Virus record (IMG/VR): IMGVR_UViG_3300031707_000026
Location: 1 to 53,650 of that record
Origin: a virus
Lineage: Duplodnaviria > Caudoviricetes
Direction: 5' to 3' (one strand)
Length of the DNA stretch: 53,650 bases
Every line of letters starts with the position of its first letter. Within the stretch, counting starts at the first letter, position 1. Positions 12,727 through 36,035 of this stretch are shown here, piece after piece. The notes under the pieces are model-generated. The model saw only the letters and a list, made by a program, of their open reading frames with translations, made no database searches and had not been told where the DNA came from. The position numbers and the translations under genes were made by a program.

Positions 12727-12799
12727 TGCGGGGTGGAGCAGCGGTTAGCTCGCGTGGCTCATAACCACGAGGTCGCGGGTTCAAATCCCGCCCCCGCTA
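12727..12799 (+). tRNA. tRNA-Met(CAT), initiator (fMet)-like
   Basis: TGCGGGG/CCCCGCT acceptor with 1:72 mismatch, TGGAGCAGC D-arm, CTCATAA loop, GGTTCAAATCC T-arm; no encoded CCA. Confidence 0.92.
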
Positions 12800-12821
12800 C
12801 TTATTTGTAGAGAGGAGTGTT

Positions 12822-14130: not shown

Positions 14131-14769
14131 ATGTTTCGCAAACGCTTCTCATTCCTGTTCGTCGTCTTGGTCGCTCTGTCTTCAGTAGCCTTGATCGTGT
14201 CCAACATCATAGCTGGAAAGCTCTGGCAAGCACCTTTCGGGTTGATCTTTACTACAGCTGTCTGGCTGTTCCCGATCGTCTACATCCTGAACGATGTGAT
14301 CCCAGAATGTTATGGCTTGAAGACAGCTCAGAAAGTTATCTTCACAGCCTTTGGGTTGAATGCCCTGGCTGTTCTATTCTTCTACATCTGCTTGTGGCTT
14401 CCAGCTCCAGTCTTCTGGCAGAATCAAGCAGCCTTTCAGACAGTCTTGGGATTTACCGTTCGACTCTTGATTGCTTCGTTTGCTGGGTACCTGGCCGGCT
14501 CTAACTTGAACGTCTGGATCATGGTAACTATCAAGAAGCTAACTCACGAGAAGTACTTGTGGGTTCGAACGATTACTTCGACGATCTTCGGCGAGTACTT
14601 GGACACCTTGATCTTCGCATCCATCGCCTTCTATGGGACGATGCCACTTTCAGCTCTAGGATCCTTGATTCTCTCGATGGGAGCTTTCAAGATCCTCTAC
14701 GAAGTCTGTGCTACCCCATTGACATACATCGTTGTTAACTGGGTCAAGAAAGTCGAGAAAGAAACATGA
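14131..14769 (+). CDS. yhhQ: Queuosine-precursor (preQ0/preQ1) transporter, YhhQ/VUT family
   Basis: SNIIAGK, FPIVYILNDVIPECYG, ASFAGYLAG, LWVRTITST..GEYLDT.IF..IAFYG. Confidence 0.9.
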   Translation: MFRKRFSFLFVVLVALSSVALIVSNIIAGKLWQAPFGLIFTTAVWLFPIVYILNDVIPECYGLKTAQKVIFTAFGLNALAVLFFYICLWLPAPVFWQNQAAFQTVLGFTVRLLIASFAGYLAGSNLNVWIMVTIKKLTHEKYLWVRTITSTIFGEYLDTLIFASIAFYGTMPLSALGSLILSMGAFKILYEVCATPLTYIVVNWVKKVEKET

Positions 14770-15143
14770 TTGAGACACGAATCTGTAAAGAATTTACATT
14801 CGAAGCTTCTCATCAACTCCCCAATCACAAAGGGAAGTGCAAGAACCTTCATGGGCACTCGTATCGAGTTCAAGTCGAACTCTCAGGAGAGATCAACTTA
14901 GTAGAGGGAGCCTCTGATGAAGGGATGATCACAGACTTCGGAGATCTCTCAGAGATCGTCAAGACTGAAGTTCTCGATCGATTTGATCATCATCACTTGA
15001 ATGATCTGATCGTAGCTGTCCCGACAGTAGAGATTCTAGCAATGATCATCTTCAAGATCATCCGAAGAAAGACATCGAAAGTCTCCCGAGTTCGTATCTA
15101 TGAGACAGCTACATCGTATGCAGAGGTAGTTGATGTCGAATAG
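14766..15143 (+). CDS. queD: 6-carboxytetrahydropterin synthase QueD
   Basis: FEASHQL, CKNLHGHSY, DFGDL, DHHHLND, PTVE, ETATS. Confidence 0.93.
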   Translation: MIETRICKEFTFEASHQLPNHKGKCKNLHGHSYRVQVELSGEINLVEGASDEGMITDFGDLSEIVKTEVLDRFDHHHLNDLIVAVPTVEILAMIIFKIIRRKTSKVSRVRIYETATSYAEVVDVE

Positions 15144-15816
15144 CTTTCCTGTCGTCGAGATCTTTGGGCCTACTCTTCAAGGAGAAGGCCCTCAGATCGG
15201 CCTCAGATCAACATTTGTTCGATTTGCTGGCTGCGATCTTCGCTGTACATGGTGTGATTCGATGCATGCTGTCTCGTCTAATCCAAGAACGAAGATGCTC
15301 TCAATTGAAGAGATTCTATCGCGTATTCGATCTCTTCTTGAAGTCGAGTGGGTCGTCCTGACAGGAGGAAACCCTCTATTATATGACTTGAGTGATCTCG
15401 TGTCTCGTCTTCAATCGGGAGGGTATCGAGTAGCTGTTGAAACTCAAGGAACACTCTGGAAGCCTTGGATAACTTGGGTCGACTGTCTCGTTGTCTCTCC
15501 TAAACCCAAGTGGTCTCAGCCTGAAGCATATCAACAACGAACATGCGTAGATCATCGATTCGAACATCTTCGAAAAAGCGAGTTCTACAAGATCGTTGTC
15601 TTCGAAGAAAGAGATCTCGATTTTGCTGAACAGTTCTCTGAAGTCGGAGATCATCTCTATCTATCATGTGGGACTCTCCCAACAGACTCTTCAAGTGATG
15701 TTCTTCAGAGACTTCGAGATCTGACGAAGAGATCTTTTGATCGTCCTGCTCTTCGAAGTGCCTATTTTCTCCCACAGCTTCATGTTCTTCTGTGGGGACA
15801 CAAGCGAGGTGTGTAG
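15133..15816 (+). CDS. queE: 7-carboxy-7-deazaguanine synthase QueE (radical SAM)
   Basis: EIFGPTLQGEG, FVRFAGCDLRCTWCDS, LTGGNP, ETQG, SPKP, PQLH. Confidence 0.93.
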   Translation: MSNSFPVVEIFGPTLQGEGPQIGLRSTFVRFAGCDLRCTWCDSMHAVSSNPRTKMLSIEEILSRIRSLLEVEWVVLTGGNPLLYDLSDLVSRLQSGGYRVAVETQGTLWKPWITWVDCLVVSPKPKWSQPEAYQQRTCVDHRFEHLRKSEFYKIVVFEERDLDFAEQFSEVGDHLYLSCGTLPTDSSSDVLQRLRDLTKRSFDRPALRSAYFLPQLHVLLWGHKRGV

Positions 15817-15817
15817 A

Positions 15818-16375
15818 ATGTCTGATCGACTTGAGACTCTCATTGAGAGCCTTCTGATAGAATCTGGAGATGACTATACTCGAGAAGGGCTCAAAGATAC
15901 TCCTCGAAGAGTCGCTGCTGCCTATCGAGAGATGTGGGCAGGGTATGGTCAAGATCCTGCAGCAATCCTTCGAACTTTCGATTCTGAAGGACATCACGAC
16001 TTGATCTCAGTCACTCAGATTCCTTTCTATTCGACATGCGAGCATCATTTGTTGCCGTTCTTCGGAGTAGCTCATATTGGGTACATCCCTGAAGACAAGA
16101 TCATCGGGATCTCAAAAATTGCTCGAGTCGTCGAAATCTTTGCTAGACGACTTCAAGTCCAAGAGAGACTGACAGCGCAAGTTGCTGATACGTTGTTCGA
16201 AGAGCCTCTTGGGCCTCAAGGAGTCATTGTTGTGCTTCAAGCTGAACATCTGTGCATGGCAATGCGAGGCATTCTGAAGCCTGGGACGATTACAACAACA
16301 TCAGCAATTCGAGGAATCTTTGTCGATGATGTCGATCTTCGAGCTGAATTCTTATCTTTGATTCAAAAGAGGTGA
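15818..16375 (+). CDS. folE: GTP cyclohydrolase I
   Basis: REGLKDTPRRVA, STCEHHLLPFFG, GISKIAR, RRLQVQERLT, HLCMAMRG. Confidence 0.95.
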   Translation: MSDRLETLIESLLIESGDDYTREGLKDTPRRVAAAYREMWAGYGQDPAAILRTFDSEGHHDLISVTQIPFYSTCEHHLLPFFGVAHIGYIPEDKIIGISKIARVVEIFARRLQVQERLTAQVADTLFEEPLGPQGVIVVLQAEHLCMAMRGILKPGTITTTSAIRGIFVDDVDLRAEFLSLIQKR

Positions 16376-17040
16376 CTATGAGTGCTGTCTTACTACTTTC
16401 TGGAGGGCTCGACTCAGGAACTCTCTTGACGAAACTCTATCACGAAAGCATCGATGTCATCCCTCTATCTATCGACTATGGCCAGAGGCACAGAGGTGCT
16501 GAGGGAGAGGCTGCTCAACATCTATCAGACTTCTTCAGAGTACCCCTGAAAACTTTATCTCTCGAAGATGTCTTCTCTTTTATTCCCATGGGAGCTCTCT
16601 TGAGTACCACACCCATGCCTCATCTGTCGTATCAAGAACTGGCAGAAGAGGTTGGCCCTTCCCCGACGTATGTTCCCTTCCGGAATGCAGTCTTGATTTC
16701 AGCTGCAGTCTCGATAGCTCTTCAAATCGAAGCAGACTCAGTCTACATTGCTACTCATGCTGAAGATGCTCGTAATTGGGCCTACCCTGATTGTACCCCT
16801 GAGTTTAACGGCTCCATGGCGGCAGCAGTCTATGTTGGGACGTACTCGAAGGCCCGGCTGTTCACTCCCTTCCAGTGGATGATGAAGCGAGACATCGTTA
16901 AGCTCGGCCACGAGCTGAATGCTCCGTTCCACTTAATGTGGTCTTGCTACGAAGGAGATCTGACTCCTTGTAGAAAATGTCCCACATGCATAGAAAGAGC
17001 AGAAGCCTTTCGAGCAAATGGTCTTAAAGACCCTATGTAA
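16372..17040 (+). CDS. queC: 7-cyano-7-deazaguanine synthase QueC
   Basis: LSGGLDS, YGQRH, TYVPFRN, YPDC, WSCY...CRKCPTC; no glutamine amidotransferase fusion. Confidence 0.95.
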   Translation: MTMSAVLLLSGGLDSGTLLTKLYHESIDVIPLSIDYGQRHRGAEGEAAQHLSDFFRVPLKTLSLEDVFSFIPMGALLSTTPMPHLSYQELAEEVGPSPTYVPFRNAVLISAAVSIALQIEADSVYIATHAEDARNWAYPDCTPEFNGSMAAAVYVGTYSKARLFTPFQWMMKRDIVKLGHELNAPFHLMWSCYEGDLTPCRKCPTCIERAEAFRANGLKDPM

Positions 17041-17074
17041 GTAAATCGACTCGCAGGCTAGACCTGCGAGCCTC

Positions 17075-17150
17075 GGGCCCGTAGTTCAACTGGGAGAACC
17101 ACTTGTTGCCTCCCGGCAAGTGATAGAGTGTTCGAGTCCTCTCGGGTCCA
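17075..17150 (+). tRNA. Aberrant tRNA-like gene (pseudo-tRNA, anticodon not assignable)
   Basis: GGGCCCG/CGGGTCC-A acceptor, TAGTTC..GAAC D-arm, GTTCGAGTC T-loop; anticodon arm CACTTG/CAAGTG has an 11-nt loop and the T-stem has a bulge. Confidence 0.6.
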
Positions 17151-17237
17151 CTCAAAATTGCTCAAAATCTTAGGGTATAAAGATACCCTTCTCACTAAAT
17201 GGACATGTCCTAGACAGTCCTACAAGGAGATTCTACT

Positions 17238-17513
17238 ATGCCAAGCTTTGTTGAAGTGGTCCAAGAAGAAATTCAAGAGTGTCAAAAGATCATCCAGATT
17301 CACAGTGAAGCTGGAGAGAATGCTGTTGTTCCCATCGAGCAGATGTTTCCTCACGGGATTTCTGATGTAACCTACACGATCTTTATGAAGGCTGCTCGAG
17401 CAATCGGGTACGAGATCTCGGGAGACGAGGATCGAGTTCGTGAGGAAGTTCGCGACATAGTAAATTACTGTGGGTTTCTCTTGGCACTTCTGAGAAAGAG
17501 AGACTGGTCATGA
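17238..17513 (+). CDS. Nucleotide-modification-associated domain 1 (Nmad1/DUF1599)-like protein
   Basis: K..R...EEVRDIVNY helical motif; AAGGAG RBS; inside the modification locus. Confidence 0.55.
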   Translation: MPSFVEVVQEEIQECQKIIQIHSEAGENAVVPIEQMFPHGISDVTYTIFMKAARAIGYEISGDEDRVREEVRDIVNYCGFLLALLRKRDWS

Positions 17514-18196
17514 CGCTTTCAATTCCCTCAACTGTTATTCGAGAGCTCAAGCATCTTGTGCTACTCTCCCCCTCTCGATTTCCTGTTCGAGTCATCTTCG
17601 AAGAGGTACCCGAAGATCTCTTCCCGTCTAAAGCTGTCAAAGTAGGTCCCTCGATCTATCGCAAGTTCATCTGCGAAGATTTGTGTAGCGTATGTTGTCG
17701 ATCCTTCGGCCCTCTTACTCTAGACTATCTCCCGATAGAGTCTGAGTGGTTGAAGCTCGATCCACAAACTCAATCAATGTTCGAAGAAAAGTCTATTTGG
17801 GTTGACGAGACCAAGAAGGTATTCTACTCTCTCGTCAAATCTAAAGAGTACTGTCCTCTTGCATCGTCGAGAGGGTGTAGCGTGTGGCCTCGAAATCCCT
17901 TAGCATGCGCAGCCTCGGCACGTATTCAGATCTCGAAATACCTCGAGACGACGATGATCTTGAAGAAGGGATTCTCTCGAGAGTGGCGATGGGCTGAACG
18001 AGCTCAATGCGAGTATCTTGACATTCTCGAGTGGGATGCTTCAGAACTCGGGAAGGATCTTCAGATTCTTGATCGTTATGAAGCTTGGGCGAAGTACTTT
18101 AATATCCCTACAATCGTCTCTGAGATTTGTACGAACTTGACAGCATCGTACCTTCTCGAGAAGATCATACCGTTCCAGTGTAATTTTGAGGAGTAG
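17510..18196 (+). CDS. CxxxCxxCC Fe/Zn-chelating protein (YkgJ/FliB-like; candidate DpdM-like preQ1 methyltransferase)
   Basis: CEDLCSVCC...CPLASSRGCSVWPRNPLAC; immediately upstream of the dpdA-like gene. Confidence 0.55.
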   Translation: MTLSIPSTVIRELKHLVLLSPSRFPVRVIFEEVPEDLFPSKAVKVGPSIYRKFICEDLCSVCCRSFGPLTLDYLPIESEWLKLDPQTQSMFEEKSIWVDETKKVFYSLVKSKEYCPLASSRGCSVWPRNPLACAASARIQISKYLETTMILKKGFSREWRWAERAQCEYLDILEWDASELGKDLQILDRYEAWAKYFNIPTIVSEICTNLTASYLLEKIIPFQCNFEE

Positions 18197-18199
18197 TGC

Positions 18200-19084
18200 A
18201 TGAAACCAACAATCCTTCCCCCGATCCCAAATCTTAGCTTGGCTGTAGGTCGACAGCATCACTTGGTTCTATCTCACTTGCTTCAAAGCCCGAGATACGA
18301 AAACTTTTATATTACTGAATCTTGGAATGGTGCTTACATCATTCTAGACAACTCGGCACACGAGAAGAAGCATGGGGAGTCTCCAGAAATTCTCTTGCAG
18401 CAGGCTGAAGAGATCAGAGCTTCTGAGATCGTCTGTCCTGATCACTTATTCGATCGAGCAGACACTGTTCGTCGTACTCGAGAAGCTCTTCAATTCTTTC
18501 TTGTGAATGAAGCGAGGCTGCGACAGATGACTCCAATTCCTCGTCTGATGCTTGTACCTCAAGGATCTTCTCCTGCTGAGTTCTCGTCTTGTTTACAAGA
18601 GCTGGTTCTCGAGTTCCTTGCTATCCAAAAAAAGTCTGGAGAATCATCGACTTTCTTCCCTACAATTGGAGTCTCAAAAGACTACGAGATGTGGGAAGGA
18701 GGGTTGCATCATCTGCTGAGACATGTCATCTTTCCAGTAGCTGCAACGCTTTCTGATCCTGAGATTCATCTTCTTGGGTGGGGGAGAGATCTTTGGGCTC
18801 TCGAGTCGATCGTCGAAGATTTTGGAGATCTCATCAGATCAATCGACTCAGCTAAACCTATCGTCTATGGGATTGCAGGACTTCGTCTTGACCCAAACGT
18901 TCCTGCACCAGAGTATCCTAGGCGATCTAAGATCTACTTCACCACTTCTATCTCAAGCGAGAATCTCGAGATCGTTCGAGAGAACATCAAGGTGTTTGAT
19001 ACTATTGTCTCGGGAGGCGCTAGTGATACCCAACTACGAACCCTGCCTAAAATGTCCACTCAAGGATTGCCCTCCAGTCCCTAG
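18200..19084 (+). CDS. dpdA: DpdA/TGT-like DNA guanine transglycosylase
   Basis: TIM-barrel TGT motifs ILDNS, CPD, VPQG, IHLLG, SIDS; adjacent to a full preQ0/preQ1 pathway and the polymerase. Confidence 0.7.
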   Translation: MKPTILPPIPNLSLAVGRQHHLVLSHLLQSPRYENFYITESWNGAYIILDNSAHEKKHGESPEILLQQAEEIRASEIVCPDHLFDRADTVRRTREALQFFLVNEARLRQMTPIPRLMLVPQGSSPAEFSSCLQELVLEFLAIQKKSGESSTFFPTIGVSKDYEMWEGGLHHLLRHVIFPVAATLSDPEIHLLGWGRDLWALESIVEDFGDLIRSIDSAKPIVYGIAGLRLDPNVPAPEYPRRSKIYFTTSISSENLEIVRENIKVFDTIVSGGASDTQLRTLPKMSTQGLPSSP

Positions 19085-21449
19085 CATACTAGTCTCAGAG
19101 GGGGTTGCTGTTGTGGGAGAAGCTCCCGGGGCTGTCGAAGTTGTTCAGAAAAAGCCTTTTGTAGGAGTATCAGGCCAGCTTCTTCGCGAGACCTTAAAGG
19201 CTGCAGGAGTTGATCTCGAGAAAGTGAGCTTTCTCAATGCCTGTTCATGCAGACCGCCTGACAACAAAACCCCCTCACAGTCTGCGATAAACGCTTGCTC
19301 AGAACGACTGATGAGAGAGCTCGAACAAGTCTCTCCAACTAAAATCCTGACAGTTGGAGGAAGTGCAGCTTCGACGATGTTGTCTCCTGGGAAGACTACG
19401 GCGATCACGAAAGTTCATGGTCAGGGGATGATGTGGAGTCACTCTACGTCATCGAAGTCAATATATCTTGTTTCAACGTTTCACTCAGCTGCTGTAACTC
19501 GAAACCCTGATCTATTTCGGGACTTTTCAAAAGATATTTTGAAGTGGAGCTTGAGCTTCTCCCCCTACTCATCTCCCGAGATTACAACCCTAGTAGCCCA
19601 ATCTATCGAAGAAGCTCTCGAGTACTTGGGATATCTACAGGGTGCTTCTGTGGTCTCGTGTGACTTGGAGACATCTGGGTTCGACTTCTTGTCAGACGAG
19701 ATCTTCTCCGTTGGGTTTGGGGCAATTGATCAAGACGATTCTCTTCGAGGACTCGTTGTCATCATTCCATTTCAATATGCGAATACTACACAAGTGAGTC
19801 AGCGAATCATTGATTTGCTGATCGATGCAACAAAGACTATCGTGTTTCATAACTGTAAGTTCGATTTGCAGTTCCTTCAAACATGGCTCGACGAAGATTT
19901 CGAGCCCTCGAATATCGCAGATACGATGCTGATGCAGTATGCTCAGGATGAACGTGGATCGGGAGATGCTGTCACAGGTCGAGGGTATCGATCTCTAGGA
20001 TTGAAAGATCAAGCTCGACTTCGATATGATATCTCTGACTATCGTTTCGACTTCGAGTCGTTCTTGAAAACCCCATCTAGTGAACGATCTTGGGATGCTC
20101 TCTATCAATATCATGCAATGGATTGTTACTGTACTGTTCGTCTGTACTTTGATCTTCTCGAAGAACTCGACGAAGAATCACCAAAACTCATGCAGCTAGT
20201 CAATCGAATTCTAGTCCCAGGAGCTCGAGCCCTCGCTCAAGTCGAACGAACAGGAGTCCCGATCAATGTGGAATACTTCAAGACACAATCAGATCTCTTG
20301 ACTGGAGAATTGTTACAGCTCTCAGAAGTTCTTGCGAGTACTGCAAGAGCACATGGGATCGAAGATCTCAATCCTGCATCACCTTTGCAGATCAAGAAGG
20401 TAATGAAGGCAATGAAGATCAATCTCGTATCAACAGAACGTGATTTCGTAAGCTCATACCTCAAACATTACAAGCTTTCTGAGATCGCCAGGCTATTCCT
20501 GACAACCCTAATGGAGTACCGTCAGAAGTCAAAAGTCCTTCAGACATACATGACTGGGCTTCTCGAACGTTCTCGCAACGGTCGAGTTCATCCTGATTTC
20601 TTGCTGACAGGAGTAGATACTGGCAGATTAGCTTGTCGTGATCCAAACCTCCAGAACATCCCAATTCTAATGGGGAGGATCGTTCGAGATGGCTTCGAAG
20701 CCCCTGATGGGTACATGCTCATGGAGGGTGATTATTCGCAGCTCGAATTAAGAGTAGTTGCATGGTATTCTCGAGATATAAACATGGCTACAATCTTTAG
20801 GACTGGTCGAGACATCCATCGAGAAGTCGCGGCGACGATGTTCAGAAAGTCTACTAAAGACGTTACTGAGCTTGAGCGCTACATGGCTAAGTATGTTGAC
20901 TTTGGAATTATCTACGGGCGTGGAGCTAAATCTCTCTCAGAAGGGTGGGAGATGGACTATGTAGTCGAACATGGAGGAACTCCTTGGACATTCTGGGAAG
21001 CTGAGAAGTTTTTGAACGACTTCTTGAATGGTTTCCCGGGACTGCGTGATTGGATTGATCGACAGCATCGTCTAGTTCGAGCCCAACGATTCGTCGAAAC
21101 ACCGACTGGACGTCGTCGAAGATTCCCTCTGATGCTTCAGGATACTATCTATTTGATGGAGCGAAAGGGTGTAAACACCCCCATCCAATCCCTAGCGTCG
21201 GACATATGCCTCACGAACTTGATCTATTTGAAAGAACATGTTCTCCCCAAAGAGATTCGAATCATCTCGACAGTTCACGACTCAATTCTGTTTCTCGTTC
21301 CCGAAGAGATGATCGAAGAATGGGTCCCTACGATTGAATCGACTATGGAGGTTTGCAGAGCTCTTCCCGATGGAGTCGTTTTTGATATTCCTTTGAAAGT
21401 CGATGTTAAGATCGGAAAACGATGGGGTGACATGACGAAGGGATTTTAA
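19023..21449 (+). CDS. polA: Family A DNA polymerase with N-terminal family-4 uracil-DNA-glycosylase-like domain and 3'-5' exonuclease
   Basis: GGGAGG then GTG 19023; CLKCPL, GEAPG..E...KPFVG.SG, CRPP (UDG); DLETSG, HNCKFD, YHAMD (Exo I-III); DYSQLELR, RYMAKYVDFGIIYG, TVHDS (Pol motifs A/B/C). Confidence 0.92.
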   Translation: MIPNYEPCLKCPLKDCPPVPSILVSEGVAVVGEAPGAVEVVQKKPFVGVSGQLLRETLKAAGVDLEKVSFLNACSCRPPDNKTPSQSAINACSERLMRELEQVSPTKILTVGGSAASTMLSPGKTTAITKVHGQGMMWSHSTSSKSIYLVSTFHSAAVTRNPDLFRDFSKDILKWSLSFSPYSSPEITTLVAQSIEEALEYLGYLQGASVVSCDLETSGFDFLSDEIFSVGFGAIDQDDSLRGLVVIIPFQYANTTQVSQRIIDLLIDATKTIVFHNCKFDLQFLQTWLDEDFEPSNIADTMLMQYAQDERGSGDAVTGRGYRSLGLKDQARLRYDISDYRFDFESFLKTPSSERSWDALYQYHAMDCYCTVRLYFDLLEELDEESPKLMQLVNRILVPGARALAQVERTGVPINVEYFKTQSDLLTGELLQLSEVLASTARAHGIEDLNPASPLQIKKVMKAMKINLVSTERDFVSSYLKHYKLSEIARLFLTTLMEYRQKSKVLQTYMTGLLERSRNGRVHPDFLLTGVDTGRLACRDPNLQNIPILMGRIVRDGFEAPDGYMLMEGDYSQLELRVVAWYSRDINMATIFRTGRDIHREVAATMFRKSTKDVTELERYMAKYVDFGIIYGRGAKSLSEGWEMDYVVEHGGTPWTFWEAEKFLNDFLNGFPGLRDWIDRQHRLVRAQRFVETPTGRRRRFPLMLQDTIYLMERKGVNTPIQSLASDICLTNLIYLKEHVLPKEIRIISTVHDSILFLVPEEMIEEWVPTIESTMEVCRALPDGVVFDIPLKVDVKIGKRWGDMTKGF

Positions 21450-21946
21450 TGAAGATTTCTGGTGTCTATCAAATCACTTTCTCGTGTTCTGAGACGAGGT
21501 ATATTGGATCATCGAGTGACATGCTTTTTCGAAGAGACTGTCATCTATATGATCTAAGATGTAGAGTTCATGTTAACTCACATCTTCAGAATGCTTTCAA
21601 CAAGTATGGTGAAGGAGCTTTTAGGTTCAGGGTCCTCCTGTATTGTGATCCCTATAATTGTACTCTATACGAACAGAGACTCATAGACTTCTTGGGATTA
21701 GAGAAGCTTTATAACATTTGTCCGCAAGTTAACTCTGTAGCTCGAACTAGAGTAAGACCCTATCATCTGTCTTTCGATCATCGAGAAAAGATTAGTCGAG
21801 CTAACAGGGGTAAAACTCGTACTCAGAAGATGCGAGAAAGAAACAGTCTTACTCACAGAGGCAAGTACCCTTCACAAGAGACTCGAGAGAAACTCAGACA
21901 AGCTCAAAGAGCTCGAAGACTTAGGGAGAAGATGAATGACTGCTGA
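21449..21946 (+). CDS. Free-standing GIY-YIG homing endonuclease with NUMOD3-like tail
   Basis: SGVYQI...YIGSS, HLQNAFNKYG, E...YNI, SQETREKL. Confidence 0.85.
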   Translation: MKISGVYQITFSCSETRYIGSSSDMLFRRDCHLYDLRCRVHVNSHLQNAFNKYGEGAFRFRVLLYCDPYNCTLYEQRLIDFLGLEKLYNICPQVNSVARTRVRPYHLSFDHREKISRANRGKTRTQKMRERNSLTHRGKYPSQETREKLRQAQRARRLREKMNDC

Positions 21947-25485: not shown

Positions 25486-25700
25486 TGCGTTTTGCGGGGG
25501 GTACAGTTATACCCTACTCTGCAAACGAATGCGTCCTAGGCTGTCCTACACGTGAAGATCCTATAGAAATAGCGATGCAGTGCAAGAACCAACGATCGCG
25601 CTGGTAGGAGACAGGGAAGATGACAACCCTGCTCGCACTGCATCGCAGACGAGCGGACGAGAATCGAACTCGTCTACACAACCATGTCGCTCGTGACGTT

Positions 25701-26372
25701 CTAAAGCCCGCTCTCGCATCCCTGAATGTCGTTCAGGATGTCTTCCCAAGCAGACTCGATTCGAGTCTGAGCTTCGTTATCGAGCTCTTCTTGCCAAGCT
25801 TCGTGGCGCTTCTCAAGTTCTGTCCCGATCTCTTCTTTGTGCTCGTCAGCGTCGAACTCAGCATCCTCCTCGAGAGTCTGCTGTTCGAGCTCGTGAATAA
25901 TCTCGTCTCGAGCAGCATTCTCGTCCCACTCTTCGTACTCGTTCTTGACATCTTCTCGAATCTGATCTTCGTCGACTTCAAGATCAAACCCTTCGAGATC
26001 GCCAGCCCACGACTCTAGCCCATCAATACGCTCCTGAAGGAGTTGGCCTGCGTTCGACGATTCCTGGAGCTGCTCTGGCATGTTCGAGAGACTGTCTTCA
26101 CAAGTCGAACGAAGATCGTTGATTCGATCGACGAAGCTGGGGACTTCATCAGCGAGGGACTTGTCTGCAGAGAGAGCTCCAAGACCATCTTCGATCTCGT
26201 AGAGCTCTTGAAGGAATGAACTCTGCGTCAGCTGACCGCGAGTTGGAGGTGTCAGCTGCATGTGAAGCACACTATCGAAGCGAAATTGCCACCAGTAGTA
26301 CGAATCCCCTTTCTTAATTCCGTACTTCGGGTAATCTCTACGTGCATGTTTGACGTGCGTTACTTGAGGCAT
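25701..26372 (-). CDS. Phage hypothetical protein (basic N-terminus, acidic coiled coil)
   Basis: GGAG RBS; last gene of the - strand array. Confidence 0.7.
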   Translation of the reverse strand: MPQVTHVKHARRDYPKYGIKKGDSYYWWQFRFDSVLHMQLTPPTRGQLTQSSFLQELYEIEDGLGALSADKSLADEVPSFVDRINDLRSTCEDSLSNMPEQLQESSNAGQLLQERIDGLESWAGDLEGFDLEVDEDQIREDVKNEYEEWDENAARDEIIHELEQQTLEEDAEFDADEHKEEIGTELEKRHEAWQEELDNEAQTRIESAWEDILNDIQGCESGL

Positions 26373-31021: not shown

Positions 31022-31110
31022 AGATTGCATTGAATGATGCAACCTTAACAAATCATCTAACAAGGAGTTAGATGATTTGTTAAGGTTGAGCAACTGAGAA
31101 GTTGCTCAAC
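31022..31110 (-). ncRNA. Class II intergenic four-arm structured element
   Basis: Three hairpins sharing GTTG/CAAC; last loop CATTCA. Confidence 0.55.
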
Positions 31111-31120
31111 TTTGATCTTT

Positions 31121-31372
31121 CTAGAAGTCTAGCCAGAGAGGGAGCTTCTCGAACTCTCGACCCCACCACTCGATCATTGAGTCGCCTTGATCATACGCCT
31201 TCATTACTAGGCATCGAAGGTTGTTCGAGTGAAAGAGATCCATTGTTATCGTGCCGCGCTCGATTGCCAAGAATGTGTTGCTGAGTTCGATGTAGGCATC
31301 AGTTTGTGCAGCATTGTATAAGCGGGCAGCTTCCTGCTTGTCCCATTGTTGCCAAACGGGTAGCATAGTCAT
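31121..31372 (-). CDS. Hypothetical protein
   Basis: AAAGGAG RBS. Confidence 0.5.
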   Translation of the reverse strand: MTMLPVWQQWDKQEAARLYNAAQTDAYIELSNTFLAIERGTITMDLFHSNNLRCLVMKAYDQGDSMIEWWGREFEKLPLWLDF

Positions 31373-31385
31373 TTCATTTCTCCTT

Positions 31386-31580
31386 TCACAAATAGCCAAG
31401 CTGTCGAAGCGAGCGACTAGCCTTCATGAATTGACTCCAGCGCTTCACAGCCCACATCTCAGCAAGTTCGCGGTCAGTGAAGAAACGTTTCCCGACGAAC
31501 ACTTGCGAGTTCCCCTGCACGGCGCTTAGACGAATCGTGACGCCGTTTGGTGCATACTTTCGGTCGACTTTTACGTGCAT
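31386..31580 (-). CDS. Hypothetical protein
   Basis: AAAGGAG RBS before ATG 31580. Confidence 0.5.
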   Translation of the reverse strand: MHVKVDRKYAPNGVTIRLSAVQGNSQVFVGKRFFTDRELAEMWAVKRWSQFMKASRSLRQLGYL

Positions 31581-31594
31581 CTTGTTTCTCCTTT

Positions 31595-31655
31595 GGGATT
31601 GAACGATCCCTGACTCAACCTTAACATTTGTTAAGGTTGAGATGCGAGCGTTCAA
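31595..31655 (-). ncRNA. Class I intergenic structured element
   Basis: TTGAACGCTCG...CTCAACCTTAAC/GTTAAGGTTGAG hairpin...GGGAT-CGTTCA-ATCCC. Confidence 0.6.
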
Positions 31656-31661
31656 TTAGCT

Positions 31662-32087
31662 TTAGAGCATCAACTCATCGCGCAGGAACGGCGGCAAGTG
31701 AGAATTGTGGTAATAGTAGCTCGTCGCGATGAACGGCGCTACTTCTTCATACCACTTCTTGGTGCTGCGATATGCTTGCCGAATCTTGCCGTCGACAACT
31801 ACTGCATGCTCAATCGTCTCATCGCGTCCCCACTTGCTGATGCGAAAGATTGTGCCGACCGAGCCTTCCTGCTTGCCGTCTGCAGAGCTCATCAACGCTT
31901 CGAGATTGGTGCGAGCTTCACCAAGCGTCACAAAGTCTTCAGAGCGAGCTGTTTTGTGAAGCTTGTCGTCGTCGCCGATGACGCGCAGCGTTGCAAAGTA
32001 GCGAGTTGTCGTAGTGCCATGCTTGATCATGCGGGCTCGCCTTGCAGAAAACTTGCTCATCATCCTTTCGTCGAACATTGTAGCCAT
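31662..32087 (-). CDS. Hypothetical protein
   Basis: AAAAAGGAG RBS after a class II element. Confidence 0.6.
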   Translation of the reverse strand: MATMFDERMMSKFSARRARMIKHGTTTTRYFATLRVIGDDDKLHKTARSEDFVTLGEARTNLEALMSSADGKQEGSVGTIFRISKWGRDETIEHAVVVDGKIRQAYRSTKKWYEEVAPFIATSYYYHNSHLPPFLRDELML

Positions 32088-32112
32088 CTTTGCTCTCCTT
32101 TTTGCAAAAAAT

Positions 32113-32207
32113 AGATTGTAGCCGAATTGCTACAACCTTAACAAGTCGTCCAAACTAGTTGAACGACTTGTTAAGGTTGAGGAGCTCCTCCTCGAGCTCT
32201 TCAACCT
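32113..32207 (-). ncRNA. Class II intergenic four-arm structured element
   Basis: Three hairpins sharing GTTG/CAAC; last hairpin GTTGTAGC-AATTCG-GCTACAATC. Confidence 0.55.
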
Positions 32208-32213
32208 AAAACC

Positions 32214-32435
32214 TTACGCTGAGTGCCAGCCGAAGCGGTAGTAGAAGCGTCGCATCTTTGCTTCGCCTTCAACCTGCACTGTCGCGCGAACATAGACGCC
32301 GCTTGGGCCTAAGCCGCACGTCACAATTTTCGCTGACTTGCCAAGCTTGGCTGCAAGCTTAGCAACCTTGACTTCAAGCTCCCTGCGAGTCATTACAACA
32401 TATTTCGCGTTTTCCTTCTCGTCTTCTGTAGCCAT
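32214..32435 (-). CDS. Small basic protein, probable paralog of the 33541-33822 product
   Basis: KLGK...VQVEGEAKMRRFYYRFGW aligns by eye with KLGK...VKVVGEVGLRRWFWYGGRW. Confidence 0.6.
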   Translation of the reverse strand: MATEDEKENAKYVVMTRRELEVKVAKLAAKLGKSAKIVTCGLGPSGVYVRATVQVEGEAKMRRFYYRFGWHSA

Positions 32436-32458
32436 CTTTGCTCTCCTTTTGCAAAAAT

Positions 32459-32554
32459 AGATTGTAGCCGAATTGCTACAACCTTAACAAATCACTCAAA
32501 GGCAAACTTTGCTTTGAGAGATTTGTTAAGGTTGAGCAACTCTCGTTGCTCAAC
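32459..32554 (-). ncRNA. Class II intergenic four-arm structured element
   Basis: Same architecture; its 3' ~60 nt are nearly identical to the 32113 copy. Confidence 0.55.
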
Positions 32555-32894
32555 TTTTTCATCGGCGAGGTCGTCGCAAGCTTCAAATAGCTCGCTCATT
32601 CATTCGCGAGTCGTCGCAAGCTAAATATCTTTGCTCGCTCGTCACAAATTGTATCCGGTGCTATCTACGCGCATCAAAAGATGTCGCCCTACTTTCGCTT
32701 GGGTTTCGCGATTTTGGATTCTGTCGCTTCGCATCCCCACCTCCTAGCCTACTATTACCTTTTTGAGCCTTGTTAAGGTTAGTTTTCACTGCGCTTCTGC
32801 TTGCGTACCTGCCTTCGCAGCTACTTTCCTTAATGCTCGCGGATTGGAGGTGATGTGGTGAAAAGTTTGGTTGTTAAAGTGCTATCTTATATTT

Positions 32895-32937
32895 ATTATA
32901 GAGCCTAAAGATTAAGGGGCGATTAAGAGATAATAAG
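32895..32937 (-). promoter_or_regulatory. Promoter for the - strand early array (phased CTTAATC boxes plus TATAAT)
   Basis: Minus strand reads CTTATTATCT-CTTAATCGCCC-CTTAATCTTTAGGCTC-TATAAT. Confidence 0.65.
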
Positions 32938-32977
32938 AGTTTCGCGGACTGTTAGGAGGAGTAGTTGTGTAAAGTTT

Positions 32978-33410
32978 TGTTAAGGTTGTTAAGGTGGGGA
33001 GCGAGCGCGCGTGATTTGTTAAGATACTGCTCGCACGCTTTCAAGCCTGCGCGCAAAGCGACGCGCTCGTTAGGGTTGTTAAGATTGTTAAGGTTGTTAA
33101 GATTGTTAAGGTTGTTAAGACTCGCGCGCACACTCGCTCGCACTCACTCGCTCTCTCGCACGCACTCGCGCGGTCGCTCGCTCAAAGTTGAGCTTGCGCC
33201 GAGCGGAGTTGTGAAGCGCGAGTTGTTAAGGTTGTTAAGGTTGCGCGTATCTTAACAAATGTTAAGGTTGTTAAGGTTGCGCGTATCTTAACAACCTTAA
33301 CGGCTGCGCGTACCTTAACAACCTTAACAACTGCGCGGTGTTAAGGTTGCGAAGAGCTGCGATTTGTTAAGGTTGTTAAGGTTGCGCGTACCTTAACAAC
33401 CTTAACAAAT
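32978..33410. repeat. Array of 9-bp TTGTTAAGG / CCTTAACAA repeats interleaved with GCGC(G) tracts
   Basis: Dozens of direct and inverted copies, e.g. 33068-33120 and 33222-33410. Confidence 0.9.
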
Positions 33411-33423
33411 CGCACCAAATCCT

Positions 33424-33488
33424 CTAATCTTCTTCTTAGCGCCTTTTAATCTCCTCTTAATACTCTCTTAATCTTGGTAGCCTATAAT
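33424..33488 (+). promoter_or_regulatory. Promoter with five 11-bp-phased boxes plus TATAAT
   Basis: Boxes at 33424, 33435, 33446, 33457, 33468; TATAAT at 33483. Confidence 0.7.
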
Positions 33489-33540
33489 ATAGGTATAAAG
33501 GAAGCCGCCGGTTTCCTAAAAGAAGAAAAGGAGAAATGAA

Positions 33541-33822
33541 ATGAAAGAAAGAATTGAAAGGGAAATAGAAAGAGTAGGAAATGAGTATGGGGTGAGAGTT
33601 GGAGAGAGGTTGGAAGAGAGATTGTTAAGGTTGGAAAAGTTAGGAAAGGAGATTGAAAGTGTTAAGGCTTATGTTTTTGAAGGAAAGGAGAAGGAGATAG
33701 GTTATGCAGGAAGAAGGGGATATGGTAGGGGTTTTTGGAAAAGAGGAGTTGTTAAGGTTGTAGGAGAAGTAGGATTAAGGAGATGGTTTTGGTATGGAGG
33801 AAGGTGGTGTAATAGTAGATAA
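33541..33822 (+). CDS. Stand-alone 93-aa protein encoded almost without cytosine
   Basis: Own promoter, AAAAGGAG RBS and terminator; only C33668 and C33707, both in Ala codons; similar to the 32214-32435 product. Confidence 0.75.
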   Translation: MKERIEREIERVGNEYGVRVGERLEERLLRLEKLGKEIESVKAYVFEGKEKEIGYAGRRGYGRGFWKRGVVKVVGEVGLRRWFWYGGRWCNSR

Positions 33823-33835
33823 ATAGATAGGTAGG

Positions 33836-33872
33836 AAAAGGAACCTTAACAAATGTTAAGGTTCCTTTTTTT
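33836..33872 (+). terminator. Rho-independent terminator built from the GTTAAGG motif
   Basis: AAAAGGAACCTTAAC-AAAT-GTTAAGGTTCCTTTTTTT. Confidence 0.8.
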
Positions 33873-33917
33873 AAGATTGTTAAGATGCGTTAAGGTTGTT
33901 AAGGTTGCGCGGCTCGT

Positions 33918-33999
33918 GTTAAGGTTGTTAAGCTCGTTAAGGTTGTTAAGCTCGTTAAGGTTGTTAAGCTCGTTAAGGTTGTTAAGCTCGTTAAGGTTG
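33918..33999. repeat. 18-bp tandem repeat GTTAAGGTTGTTAAGCTC, four copies plus a partial
   Basis: Perfect units start at 33918, 33936, 33954 and 33972. Confidence 0.95.
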
Positions 34000-34234
34000 G
34001 CAACCCCCGGCGCGTGCGCGATGCGCGAGAGCCCGGGAGCTGTGTGCGACATCAGCGACAATCGCATCTCACATCTCTCACTACGCATCTACAACGCCCA
34101 GATCAAGTCACATCTCGCATCTCCCTACACTATGCAACCCCAAAAGGCCGCCAAACTTTAGGAAACAGCACGCTTAAAAAGCACGCTTGCAACGCCCCCT
34201 ACAACGCCAAGGTCTAGAGAACAGCACGTCTCGA

Positions 34235-34440
34235 AAGCATCGTTTGACATGTCAAACTAACTTCCCTGAATAACTTTACTAACCTATCCCGAGCAAAGTT
34301 AGCAAAGTTAGTTTGCCGCATATATACATATGCGGCAAACTAACTATGCCCAACTATGCTTTGTGGGGGAAAAACTGTCAAAATAACCGCAGTTCTTTTA
34401 AGTTATTTTGACAAAAACATGCGTGTCAAACGATGCTTTT
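34235..34440. repeat. Nested inverted repeats with a central palindrome (34301-34350)
   Basis: Outer pair AAAGCATCGTTTGACA / TGTCAAACGATGCTTT; AGTTAGTTTGCCGCATAT-ATAC-ATATGCGGCAAACTAACT; TGTCAAAATAAC / GTTATTTTGACA. Confidence 0.8.
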
Positions 34441-34519
34441 TGCAGAGATTTCAGCAAGACGACAAACTAACCACACATATTCTTCGTCGTATTCTTAGTT
34501 TCTACACGGCGGACACCCC

Positions 34520-34578
34520 TTGATTTCCTCCCGAGAACATTATATACTATTGTTAAGCTATTGTTAAGGTTGTTAAGA
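34520..34578 (+). promoter_or_regulatory. Sigma70-type promoter of the packaging/structural operon, with GTTAAG boxes over the start site
   Basis: TTGATT-17 nt-TATACT (34520-34548) followed by TGTTAAGCTATTGTTAAGGTTGTTAAG. Confidence 0.65.
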
Positions 34579-34580
34579 CT

Positions 34581-34829
34581 ATGGCTCTTAAATGGATTCA
34601 GCCCAGATTATTTTATCTCTTCTCTGACGGTCCCATTGTTCGCATTGGGACGGAGTACACAGAAGAAGCGAAGCGAAGACCCCGTCTAGCTCGTCTTGGG
34701 ACGAAGCACTCTGAAGAGACGAAGCGAAAGATTGGCTCGTACCACCTTGGGACGAAACACTCTCCCGAGACGATTCAAAAGATGCGCGATACCTACCAGA
34801 GGAACCATGGCCTTCGGCAGCAAAGCTAA
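34581..34829 (+). CDS. NUMOD3-repeat-only protein (homing endonuclease remnant or DNA-binding regulator)
   Basis: GTEYTEEAK, GTKHSEETKRKI and GTKHSPETIQKM repeats; no nuclease domain. Confidence 0.6.
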   Translation: MALKWIQPRLFYLFSDGPIVRIGTEYTEEAKRRPRLARLGTKHSEETKRKIGSYHLGTKHSPETIQKMRDTYQRNHGLRQQS

Positions 34830-35358
34830 CAATATTCCCAATAGTCCAGAACACGTCTCAGAAGCTCCTGCTGCTGGCAAGGCTCGACGTGCCTTGACGA
34901 CGATGCTTCAAGACGCTGGGGATCAAATCATTGCTGTCAAGCAGGGAGAGGGAGCTACAGCCGAAGAGATTCTTCGATCGAAGTCTCAGATCCTCTCAGA
35001 TCTTGTATGGGAGATGCTGCTTTACAGAACAGTTCACTTCCCCGACGGTACGACCCTCAAAATCAACTCAATCGCAGAATGGTTCGAAGCAGTCAAGTTC
35101 TTGTATCGTCAAGTGGATGGTGCGCCGCCTGCTGAAGTTGGCTTGACTTTGAATCCGAACTTCGACCCGAAGGCTTGGGCAGAAGAGCGTCGGCAGCGTC
35201 TCGAGTCTACAGTCGCAGAACTTCCTGACGAGTCTGTGCTAGCAGTCCCTACTCCGCAATCTCAAGAAACTTCGTCGACAGATGACCTTGAAGCTGCTCT
35301 CGAAAACGCGGAGCCAGTTACAGGTACTGTATTTGATATGAATCGAGATGTAGCATGA
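34807..35358 (+). CDS. Probable terminase small subunit
   Basis: Position upstream of TerL; AVKFLYRQVDG helix motif; GAGGA RBS before ATG 34807. Confidence 0.55.
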   Translation: MAFGSKANNIPNSPEHVSEAPAAGKARRALTTMLQDAGDQIIAVKQGEGATAEEILRSKSQILSDLVWEMLLYRTVHFPDGTTLKINSIAEWFEAVKFLYRQVDGAPPAEVGLTLNPNFDPKAWAEERRQRLESTVAELPDESVLAVPTPQSQETSSTDDLEAALENAEPVTGTVFDMNRDVA

Positions 35359-36035
35359 TTGCTGGCGTCTACGAGATTAGAAATGTTTTGAACGGACATA
35401 GATATGTGGGGAGTTCGAGTGACGTGCGCTGGCGATTTCTATGCCATCAAGATGATTTGCAAAAGGGCCTACATCATAGTCGTTATCTACAGAGAGCTTG
35501 GAACAAGTATAGCGCTGAGAATTTCGTGTTTCGTGTTCTCCTCAGATGTGATCCCGATATGCTCATCTTCTTCGAGCAGAGACTCATGAACGTCATCAAG
35601 CCTGAGTATAACATTTCACCGACCGCTGGGAGTCCTCTAGGATGCAAGCATTCTGAAGAAACGAAGTTGAGATTGAGTATAATCAATCGAGGAATCAAGC
35701 GTACTGAAGACCAGAATCGAGCGAGGAGTCTTGCTCGTCAAGGGTGCAGACACTCTGAAGAGACGATCTCGAAGATGAAGATCAGTCATCGACGGGAGAA
35801 TCTATCAAAAGAGACACTTCAAAAGATGAGTCTAGCCAGTCGAGGACGAAAGTGGTCTAAAGAAACGAGAACGAAGCATCAAGGGATTAGACCTTCAGAT
35901 GAGACTAGACAGAAGATGCGAATAGCTAAATTGGGACGAAAGCAGTCTAGGGAAACAATTCAGAAGAGATGCAATACTCGAGCTTACAATCATCGACGCC
36001 TTGCTCTTCTTGCTTCGCTGGGGGGTTGGGTATGA
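35355..36035 (+). CDS. Free-standing GIY-YIG/NUMOD3 homing endonuclease
   Basis: AGVYEIRN...YVGSS, LQRAWNKY, PEYNI, multiple HSEETK repeats. Confidence 0.9.
   Translation: MIAGVYEIRNVLNGHRYVGSSSDVRWRFLCHQDDLQKGLHHSRYLQRAWNKYSAENFVFRVLLRCDPDMLIFFEQRLMNVIKPEYNISPTAGSPLGCKHSEETKLRLSIINRGIKRTEDQNRARSLARQGCRHSEETISKMKISHRRENLSKETLQKMSLASRGRKWSKETRTKHQGIRPSDETRQKMRIAKLGRKQSRETIQKRCNTRAYNHRRLALLASLGGWV

Follow-up and report, generated by a model that had tools for sequence, protein, structure and literature searches.

Can a protein-coding gene dispense with one of the four nucleotides, and at what level would such an exclusion act? The question is raised by a small cassette in an uncultured sediment phage (Duplodnaviria; Caudoviricetes) represented by the linear IMG/VR virus record IMGVR_UViG_3300031707_000026, which is 53,650 bp long and ~59% complete by CheckV; "the window" below means this whole stretch of DNA. 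At positions 33517-33843, only two cytosines (C) occur in 327 nt, and within these lies an open reading frame (ORF) of 93 codons, named here ORF93. In this study, we found that C is scarce there far beyond chance, and that 33541-33822 is very probably a genuine early protein gene in its own cassette, from which C has been excluded by selection on the nucleotide itself, a selection that shapes both the synonymous choice and the amino acid alphabet. Our preferred explanation, to which we assign a probability of roughly 0.35, is that the exclusion acts at the RNA level, giving a C-independent message.

Cytosine scarcity in a 327-nt stretch

The 327 nt consist of A130, G121, T74 and C2. Sliding windows of the same length contain on average 75.2 C across the window (standard deviation 10.6), and the lowest of them elsewhere contains 46. 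These counts agree with a first-pass annotation, made from the letters alone, which had reported two C's, each in the middle of an Ala codon. The two are located at 33668 (GCT, Ala43) and 33707 (GCA, Ala56), leaving C-free runs of 151 nt (33517-33667) and 136 nt (33708-33843), while across the whole window no run without A, G or T is longer than 35 nt. Segments poor in one base were also sought by a likelihood scan of the window and of 66 loci with related terminase genes, in which the stretch scored 72.7 and the tail of the background ended near 18-20. At the edge of this background (score 19.9) is an A-poor stretch of 192 nt in a 67% G+C relative (L039, 5031-5222), with 5 A's and a 114-nt A-free run, located in the intergenic region that separates the small terminase gene from its divergent neighbour.

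Sense-strand C makes up 18.9-26.7% of all 32 large ORFs of the window, compared with 0.7% of the C-poor stretch. T is not enriched in the stretch (22.6% vs 26% genome-wide), and the flanking non-coding DNA has a normal C content. The stretch has 40% G+C and a GC skew of +0.87, immediately 3' of the promoter, and purines amount to 77% overall as a result of the amino acid set. A 683-bp unitig (33265-33947) is identical in two sediment metagenome runs and a 435-bp piece is unchanged in a third, so the stretch is a real sequence and not an assembly artefact; one of these three runs may be the source of the virus record. The contigs carrying the gene in the three DNA runs show zero differences among them, and therefore offer no population variation for testing.

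Cytosine avoidance in codons and residues

None of the 92 codons of ORF93 contains an avoidable C, where 30.5 would be expected from the codon usage of the 32 large ORFs (P=10^-20.4). Ser is written AGT (twice), Arg AGA (8) or AGG (7) and Leu TTA (3) or TTG (3), and Pro, Thr, Gln and His are all missing, just as the first-pass annotation had read it. Its description of the genome as rich in CGA, TCG and CTC also holds, these codons accounting for 31% of Arg, 19% of Ser and 23% of Leu; CGN as a whole makes up 69% of the Arg codons of the genome and none of those of ORF93. In the codon families that remain C-free, the third letters (A38, G24, T11) do not differ from the expected 32.9, 27.2 and 12.9 (chi-square p=0.48). 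Thus, C-free synonymous usage is that of the genome, and it is C alone that is avoided, without general purine loading.

The avoidance extends to the protein. Residues that need a C in their codons (Ala, Pro, Thr, His and Gln) account for 2 of the 93 residues of ORF93 against 25% genome-wide (P~1e-9), and for none of the 82 residues of its metagenomic homologue P0003 (P~5e-11), whereas a paralogue in the window, ORF73, has 16 in 73. ORF93 and P0003 differ at 43 positions, for which BLOSUM62 expects 11.9 changes to one of these five; there are none in P0003 (P=10^-6.1) and one in ORF93. This near absence across 43 differences implies that the constraint has been kept since the two proteins split. 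Conservation of C avoidance in homologues had been proposed as a check of the first-pass annotation, and judged from the residue set of P0003, which is free of C-requiring residues, C avoidance is probably conserved; this part of the check rests on residues and not on codons. The restricted alphabet is not required by the fold, since ORF73, with 22% C, is predicted to have the same topology.

ORF93 as a protein-coding gene

Between its flanking stops, the ORF93 frame stays open for 100 codons. On the same strand, the remaining two frames contain 11 and 12 stops, as expected from the fact that ~10% of the triplets in a C-free sequence are stops. Its open length was matched by none of 20,000 mononucleotide shuffles (maximum 98 codons) and none of 5,000 dinucleotide shuffles (maximum 91). 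AlphaFold2, run with a three-row alignment, gave a model with a mean predicted local distance difference test score (pLDDT) of 78.6 and a predicted template modelling (TM) score of 0.69, in which two helices within residues 3-33 form a helical hairpin and are followed by four strands; the disordered loop of residues 49-64 is an insertion that neither P0003 nor ORF73 has.

P0003 is the sole true homologue of ORF93 that HMMER found in 1.84 billion representative proteins (E=2e-5). It is an 82-aa protein from a 1,159-bp metagenome contig, with 48% identity over its full length. The third HMMER match, P0004, is a repetitive protein of 1713 aa aligned to query residues 30-67, and was dismissed as compositional. 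A six-frame profile search of the window found ORF73 as the second family member, its C-terminal ~20 residues being similar to those of ORF93 (BLASTP E=5e-4) and P0003 (E=8e-6); over these residues the paralogue of normal composition that the first-pass annotation had placed at 32214-32435 is supported. The AlphaFold2 model of ORF73 (mean pLDDT 77.4) has the helix-plus-four-strand order of ORF93, but the two models are not independent because one alignment is common to both. The known family has three members. Word-indexed searches of 5.8 billion proteins returned ORF93 itself alone (1 of 17 candidates), ORF73 itself alone (1 of 2) and, with the three-row profile, the three known members alone among 66 candidates. 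Pattern searches for ORF93 in IMG/VR gave 45 matches, none of which was confirmed, and those for P0003 DNA confirmed 0 of 7 in IMG/VR, 0 of 594 JGI metagenome contigs and 0 of 146 GTDB genomes.

Neither ORF93 nor ORF73 matched a family in PHROGs, Pfam or NCBIfam, and Foldseek against PDB and BFVD gave no match at E<=0.001. No Rfam family reached its gathering score, the only matches being sub-threshold hairpins. In 50,697 phage records, blastn detected nothing similar to 32900-34100, and a search with a 24-nt string of the ribosome-binding site and start gave a single match, in an unrelated phage. Family and fold searches detected no similarity of ORF93 to Ocr or other known anti-restriction proteins. 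The first-pass label of a first-expressed anti-defence protein stays a proposal, as do its three mechanisms. Its reading as a real, selected, stand-alone gene, on the other hand, is supported by the open frame, the shuffles and the cassette elements.

It is very improbable that ORF93 is no gene at all and that its frame stands open accidentally in a non-coding RNA or a spacer. The lack of a Pfam, PHROG or NCBIfam match would fit such a view, as would a counterpart stretch without an ORF in a related record, G001 (see below), but none of the 25,000 shuffles gives a comparable frame, the Shine-Dalgarno (SD) distance is right, and there are a full-length homologue, a paralogue in the same genome and a confident fold prediction, with no Rfam family at gathering score.

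Related cassettes probably exist in co-occurring phages, as suggested by the contig sequences, and these phages may include the source of P0003. When runs X1-X3 were compared with window positions 32400-34700, other contigs of the same samples were found to have the hairpin of 32463-32534 with 6-9 differences. Loose ends in X1 at 33527 and 33863 belong to a contig that has the gene body in common and different flanks.

The cassette and its predicted transcript

The coordinates of the cassette and of the other features discussed here are collected in Table 1. Promoter (-10 box within a recurring element), SD, ORF and intrinsic terminator together make up a predicted cassette of bacterial type. 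A TATAAT promoter, a strong SD and a terminator had all been proposed earlier, and all were found, partly outside 33517-33843; a simple consensus scan listed neither the promoter nor the terminator. A pattern scan of IMG/VR for the promoter type of P_R gave 8 loci, and record G001 has at least 4 copies, each ahead of a small SD-ORF cassette, which suggests that P_R is an early promoter of this phage group. Early expression of ORF93 is plausible from the sequence, as the same 36-nt element stands inverted before the leftward early genes. No Pfam family was found for any of ten leftward early ORFs, and one of the ten matched PHROGs, in a family of unknown function.

Table 1. Coordinates of the ORF93 cassette and of other features of the window
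Feature	Position	Strand	Remarks
YhhQ-like preQ0 transporter	14131-14769		
QueE	15130-15816		
GTP cyclohydrolase I (FolE)	15737-16375		
QueC	16372-17040		
ORF73	32214..32435	-	ORF93 paralogue; ordinary composition, C 49 of 222 nt; strong SD
P_L	32894..32929	-	Inverted second copy of the P_R element; faces leftward small orphan genes including ORF73
Left repeat field	32979..33406	.	22 GTTAAG-family 9-mers, both orientations, between the divergent promoters
G-poor C/T-rich stretch	33413..33475	+	Upstream of P_R; CTTAAT-type repeats
Early promoter element P_R	33454..33489	+	CTCTTAAT..CTTAATCTT..TATAATA, 36 nt; -10 TATAAT at 33483-33488
Predicted 5' stem-loop	33499..33517	+	8 bp, -10.2 kcal/mol; contains all six 5' C's
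C-poor stretch	33517..33843	+	Covers SD, ORF and ~22 nt each side; bounds are exactly two G+C hairpins
Shine-Dalgarno AAGGAG	33528..33533	+	7 nt 5' of ATG at 33541
ORF93	33541..33822	+	93 codons + stop; predicted small alpha/beta protein; 15-residue alphabet plus 2 Ala
GTTAAGGTT copy in ORF93	33624..33632	+	Codons LLRLE; within 20-nt repeat 33614-33633
Variant GTTAAGGCT	33661-33669	+	Contains one of the two C's of ORF93
GTTAAGGTT copy in ORF93	33751..33759	+	Codons VVKVV; within 20-nt repeat 33741-33760
Terminator hairpin	33832..33873	+	19-bp stem, loop AAAT, -24.2 kcal/mol; U-run within 3' arm
Right repeat field	33879..33998	+	8 GTTAAG-family 9-mers, direct; includes 4.6 copies of an 18-nt unit

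The predicted transcript runs from ~33495 to 33873 and has six C's in the 5' hairpin and five in the terminator, whose core AACCTTAACAAATGTTAAGGTT is identical to a hairpin at 31617-31638. The C-poor zone reaches exactly from one hairpin to the other: the 5' stem has its final C at 33516, and the terminator stem begins its C's at 33844. The interior of this RNA has a minimum free energy (MFE) of -14.6 kcal/mol per 300 nt, compared with -86.8 +/- 11.7 for 234 control windows, the weakest of which has -45.1; 7 AGGAG and 22 GGA motifs are all unpaired in the predicted fold.

The best match of the region to the sigma-70 consensus (11/12), at 34539-34567 on the minus strand, points leftward to the back of the ORF93 terminator. 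It is preceded by three TTAAC repeats, and a perfect palindrome with 22-nt arms (34302-34349) lies downstream; no convincing ORF was seen between the two, and a small RNA is possible.

An exclusion that may act on RNA

We favour the RNA level because the limits of the zone are two RNA hairpins, because C is left only at G-C clamps or in Ala codons, and because a normally written paralogue behind an opposite early promoter fits with an insurance copy. If the exclusion of C operates on RNA, the transcript would keep C only where its two end hairpins have to be clamped and in two Ala codons, and the translated part would need almost no cytidine triphosphate (CTP), offer almost no unpaired C and, lacking G-C pairs, not fold. 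The ORF93 message might then continue to be produced, remain intact and be translated even if steps that depend on C are limited or attacked, for example by CTP shortage, by chain terminators of the 3'-deoxy-3',4'-didehydro-CTP (ddhCTP) type or by single-strand endoribonucleases with C in their sites. ORF93 would thus serve as a C-independent "insurance" copy of ORF73, which would be read from the opposite early promoter. Going one step further, it is possible, if rather doubtful, that the exclusion of a whole nucleotide is an evolved counter-defence, a C-free copy of an early protein for times at which C-dependent steps are attacked or starved by the host, through viperin-made ddhCTP, depletion of CTP or dCTP, mRNA interferases that require C, or cytosine deaminases. 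Three-letter coding would then force a 15-residue alphabet on a protein that still folds.

Several points weigh against a C-independent message. The transcript is not strictly C-free; its ~11 hairpin C's (six near the 5' end, five in the terminator) exclude absolute CTP independence, and C is reduced only ~7-fold. The C-less mRNA of the first-pass annotation is therefore retained as the most economical reading, with the qualification that the end hairpins keep these C's. A single sequence-specific RNase is escaped by losing its motif alone, not every C, and we know of no attack on C-dependent steps in the host of this phage. Sequence alone cannot tell a C-less RNA from a G-less template or from a property of the DNA, and C avoidance at the synonymous sites of P0003 is not visible from its protein. 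As for the protein, the single-sequence model of ORF93 in the ESM Atlas is poor (pLDDT 0.42) and no fold match rises above noise, the best VIA-align Z of 5.9 being inside the stated noise range of the tool. Furthermore, the repeats around ORF93 might serve as a replication origin, in packaging or as operators, and the G-poor RNA predicted for a possible analogue in G001 speaks for a lack of G-C pairing more than for a lack of C.

This analogue is a stretch of 344 nt in locus L012 (1428-1771, equal to G001 25489-25832 and to L129 10282-10625), whose TerL is 59% identical to that of the window. It counts T183, A130, G27 and C4 on the TerL strand, is 91% A+T, and none of its ORFs exceeds 37 codons. 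A CTTAAT-repeat/TATAAT promoter of the window type stands immediately upstream, and ACATTAAGA and GATTAAGA repeats flank the stretch. Its RNA would be poor in G, not in C, because its promoter points the other way. It may be an AT-rich element only, or it may be a non-coding counterpart of the ORF93 cassette or a transcription-activated origin. G001 is the only one of 13 whole relatives with a stretch comparable to the C-poor zone.

It is conceivable, albeit unlikely, that what was selected is the absence of G-C pairing and not that of C, so that the mRNA cannot fold. A structure-free message could favour immediate translation, keep GUUAAGGUU or SD-like motifs open, or be invisible to enzymes and sensors directed at double-stranded RNA. 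The interior MFE, weaker than that of any of the 234 controls and more than 6 standard deviations from their mean, and the unpaired AGGAG and GGA motifs are as this idea predicts, and the RNA that G001 would make from the same type of promoter (A183, U130, C27 and G4, with no ORF and no G-C pairing possible) points in the same direction. However, weak folding is attainable without removing every C or restricting the alphabet of the protein, the 91% A+T stretch of G001 may be an unrelated AT-rich element, and a comparable stretch is present in only one of the 13 whole relatives and one of the 66 TerL loci.

The template strand and 7-deazaguanine genes

The template strand of ORF93 is nearly free of G, and the first-pass annotation had linked this to 7-deazaguanine in the DNA, as a template without G carries no modified base and would leave RNA polymerase unhindered. 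As far as genes go, the premise is supported. QueE, FolE and QueC, genes of preQ0 synthesis, are present in the window together with a YhhQ-like transporter (14131-17040). Such a precursor transporter is unusual in a phage. QueC is followed in the cluster (14131-19084) by two unnamed ORFs, the second of which, 18200-19084, is a lead for a DpdA-like protein from the Atlas search only: its feature score is 0.96 to a cluster in which 17% of the members have PF23859 DpdA, with TM scores of 0.74/0.84, and Pfam, NCBIfam and PDB sequence searches gave no match for it. The tRNA-guanine transglycosylase family PF01702 was not found in the six frames of the window.

These genes and the DpdA-like candidate notwithstanding, we regard a role of the G-free template as quite unlikely. 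Within this one transcript, the 5' untranslated region (UTR) and the terminator are read from template with G's, and all other early genes, including the paralogue ORF73, are ordinary in composition and would be read from modified DNA. To our knowledge, phages with 7-deazaguanine express all of their genes from modified templates, which counts against this explanation as well. The candidate is named by none of the sequence searches and PF01702 is missing from the window, while G001, which has the comparable stretch, shows neither a QueC nor a DpdA-like match.

Restriction sites

A C-less strand contains no G+C site or palindrome, and escape from DNA-targeting defence by the loss of such restriction sites follows directly from the composition. 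The probability that this is what was selected is nevertheless very slight. G+C palindromes do occur in the promoter, the 5' UTR and the flanks (CCGG at ~33508, CCCGGG at ~34032 and, among the repeats, GCGCGC), and a cut anywhere in the other 53 kb would be equally fatal. The site avoidance proposed by the first-pass annotation is therefore weak, as GCGCGC, CCGG and CCCGGG stand in the leader, the promoter and the immediate flanks. The first-step-transfer DNA of T5 and gene 0.3 of T7 are early regions that enter first, are poor in sites and carry anti-restriction genes. The likeness to ORF93 is that of an early cassette without targets for host defence; unlike in these phages, site avoidance at ORF93 stops short of the promoter and flanks, which have the palindromes that site-free first-entering DNA of the T5 type would lack, and the protein, unlike that of T7 gene 0.3, has no similarity to Ocr.

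The repeat field and DNA-level explanations

All 34 exact copies of GTTAAGGTT in the window lie within 3.5 kb (31041-34571), where 0.29 would be expected. They occur as inverted pairs that form hairpins between early genes (e.g. 31617/31630 and 32480/32525) and also as arrays of direct repeats, which lie between the divergent promoters and next to them. The two perfect copies inside ORF93 encode LLRLE and VVKVV, both of which are conserved in P0003. A dimer of GTTAAGGTT occurs in 13 IMG/VR stretches, none of them a relative. The position of ORF93 within the field suggests that the protein may bind nucleic acid. The first-pass annotation had mentioned neither the field nor the two copies in the gene, nor the near lack of structure in its interior RNA.

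A DNA-level element, in which the asymmetry serves the repeat field, has a small chance of being the correct explanation; the field could be where replication starts (through strand-specific priming or an R-loop) or where packaging begins, or it could consist of operators. The confinement of the 34 copies argues for it, as do the family copies on both sides of the gene (22 left and 8 right) with 2 perfect ones inside, the GC skew of +0.87 just 3' of the promoter, and a small-terminase candidate and TerL 0.9-2.1 kb downstream. Against this, the limits of the C-poor stretch fit a translation unit and RNA hairpins, and the open frame, the homologue and the paralogue point to selection on a protein. 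At 40% G+C, the stretch offers no AT-rich unwinding element, no Rep or other initiator family matches the 93 residues of ORF93, and the local GC-skew minimum coincides with a switch in gene direction; since skew follows gene direction, it is not independent evidence of an origin. In the iteron-flanked rep genes of P1 and F, and in lambda ori within gene O, arrays of short repeats likewise bracket a gene and have copies within it; they differ from ORF93, a 93-residue protein of no initiator family and with no AT-rich unwinding region, and we know of no base exclusion in these replicons.

The repeats could also have given rise to the gene. The GTTAAGGTT unit has no C, nearby arrays give C-free runs of 52 nt, two 20-nt segments of the gene bear the repeat, and the family of 3 members is tiny; one could imagine that ORF93 arose from C-free repeat DNA, or under a strand-specific mutation bias, and has not yet acquired C. 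The odds of such a by-product seem low to us, as outside the two 20-nt segments the gene has no similarity to the repeats, and as at 48% identity neither lineage has gained C-requiring residues beyond 1 position (P=10^-6.1). Deamination of C to T cannot turn CGN into AGA or AGG, T stands at 22.6% against 26% genome-wide, and the flanking non-coding DNA has normal C.

Relatives and neighbouring genes

The TerL of the window has relatives at 66 loci (35-63% identity), which have almost nothing else in common with the window, and the ORF93 family was found in none of the 44 records of these relatives. Downstream of the cassette are a possible small terminase gene, a GIY-YIG homing endonuclease gene and TerL. 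The window has two GIY-YIG/NUMOD3 homing endonuclease genes, one between DNA polymerase and primase-helicase (21449-21946) and one between the small-terminase candidate and TerL (35355-36035), and an 82-codon ORF with NUMOD3-like repeats (GTKHSEETKRKIG) at 34581-34829 looks like a homing endonuclease remnant. A single tRNA-Met gene (anticodon CAT) is located at 12727-12800. Several of the TerL relatives (L045, L048, L050, L054 and L043/L044) are peppered with 8-mers of their own: L045 has 47 copies of AACGGCCG in its 13 kb, L048 has 28 of CGACCGCG and L050 has 17 of TCACTCAA, and in L043 and L044 TerL is immediately preceded by a tight GGGACGCA array. It seems characteristic of this group that its lineages have repeat motifs of their own.

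Comparison with known systems and significance

A natural gene lacking cytosine or another nucleotide was not found in the literature searched. ACA-less genes have been engineered for single-protein production with MazF, where the message outlives an mRNA interferase that destroys the others. These resemble ORF93 in that a coding sequence is altered at synonymous sites, but they are man-made and have lost one triplet, whereas ORF93 is natural, has lost a whole nucleotide and is restricted in its alphabet too, and no interferase is known for it. G-less cassettes are laboratory transcription templates of a few hundred nt that are transcribed without one of the four nucleoside triphosphates. They are artificial and non-coding, unlike the natural, translated-type gene ORF93, and the letter missing from the RNA of ORF93 is C. 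Among eukaryotic viruses, CpG is depleted against ZAP, C is depleted under APOBEC, and the Gly-Ala repeat of EBNA1 has a purine-rich mRNA. Here too, selection works on the nucleotides of coding RNA independently of the protein. These biases are statistical, being either genome-wide or repeat-based, in contrast to the complete exclusion of a base from one gene in ORF93, whose synonymous choice has no purine bias (p=0.48) of the kind seen in a purine-loaded mRNA such as that of the EBNA1 repeat. In none of these systems, nor in those of T5, T7, P1, F and lambda, is a natural protein-coding gene known to exclude one base completely.

In summary, if selection can strip one letter from a working gene, phage and host may exert pressure on a single nucleotide of a single message, a kind of pressure that has not yet been described. 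ORF93 would also be a natural experiment with a reduced alphabet, in which a protein of 15 residue types is predicted to fold like its normally written paralogue, and P0003 carries the experiment on with an alphabet lacking Ala, Pro, Thr, His and Gln. A composition scan for one-base-free ORFs offers a cheap new route to such genes in viral metagenomes, and the genes so found may point to the defence that they answer.

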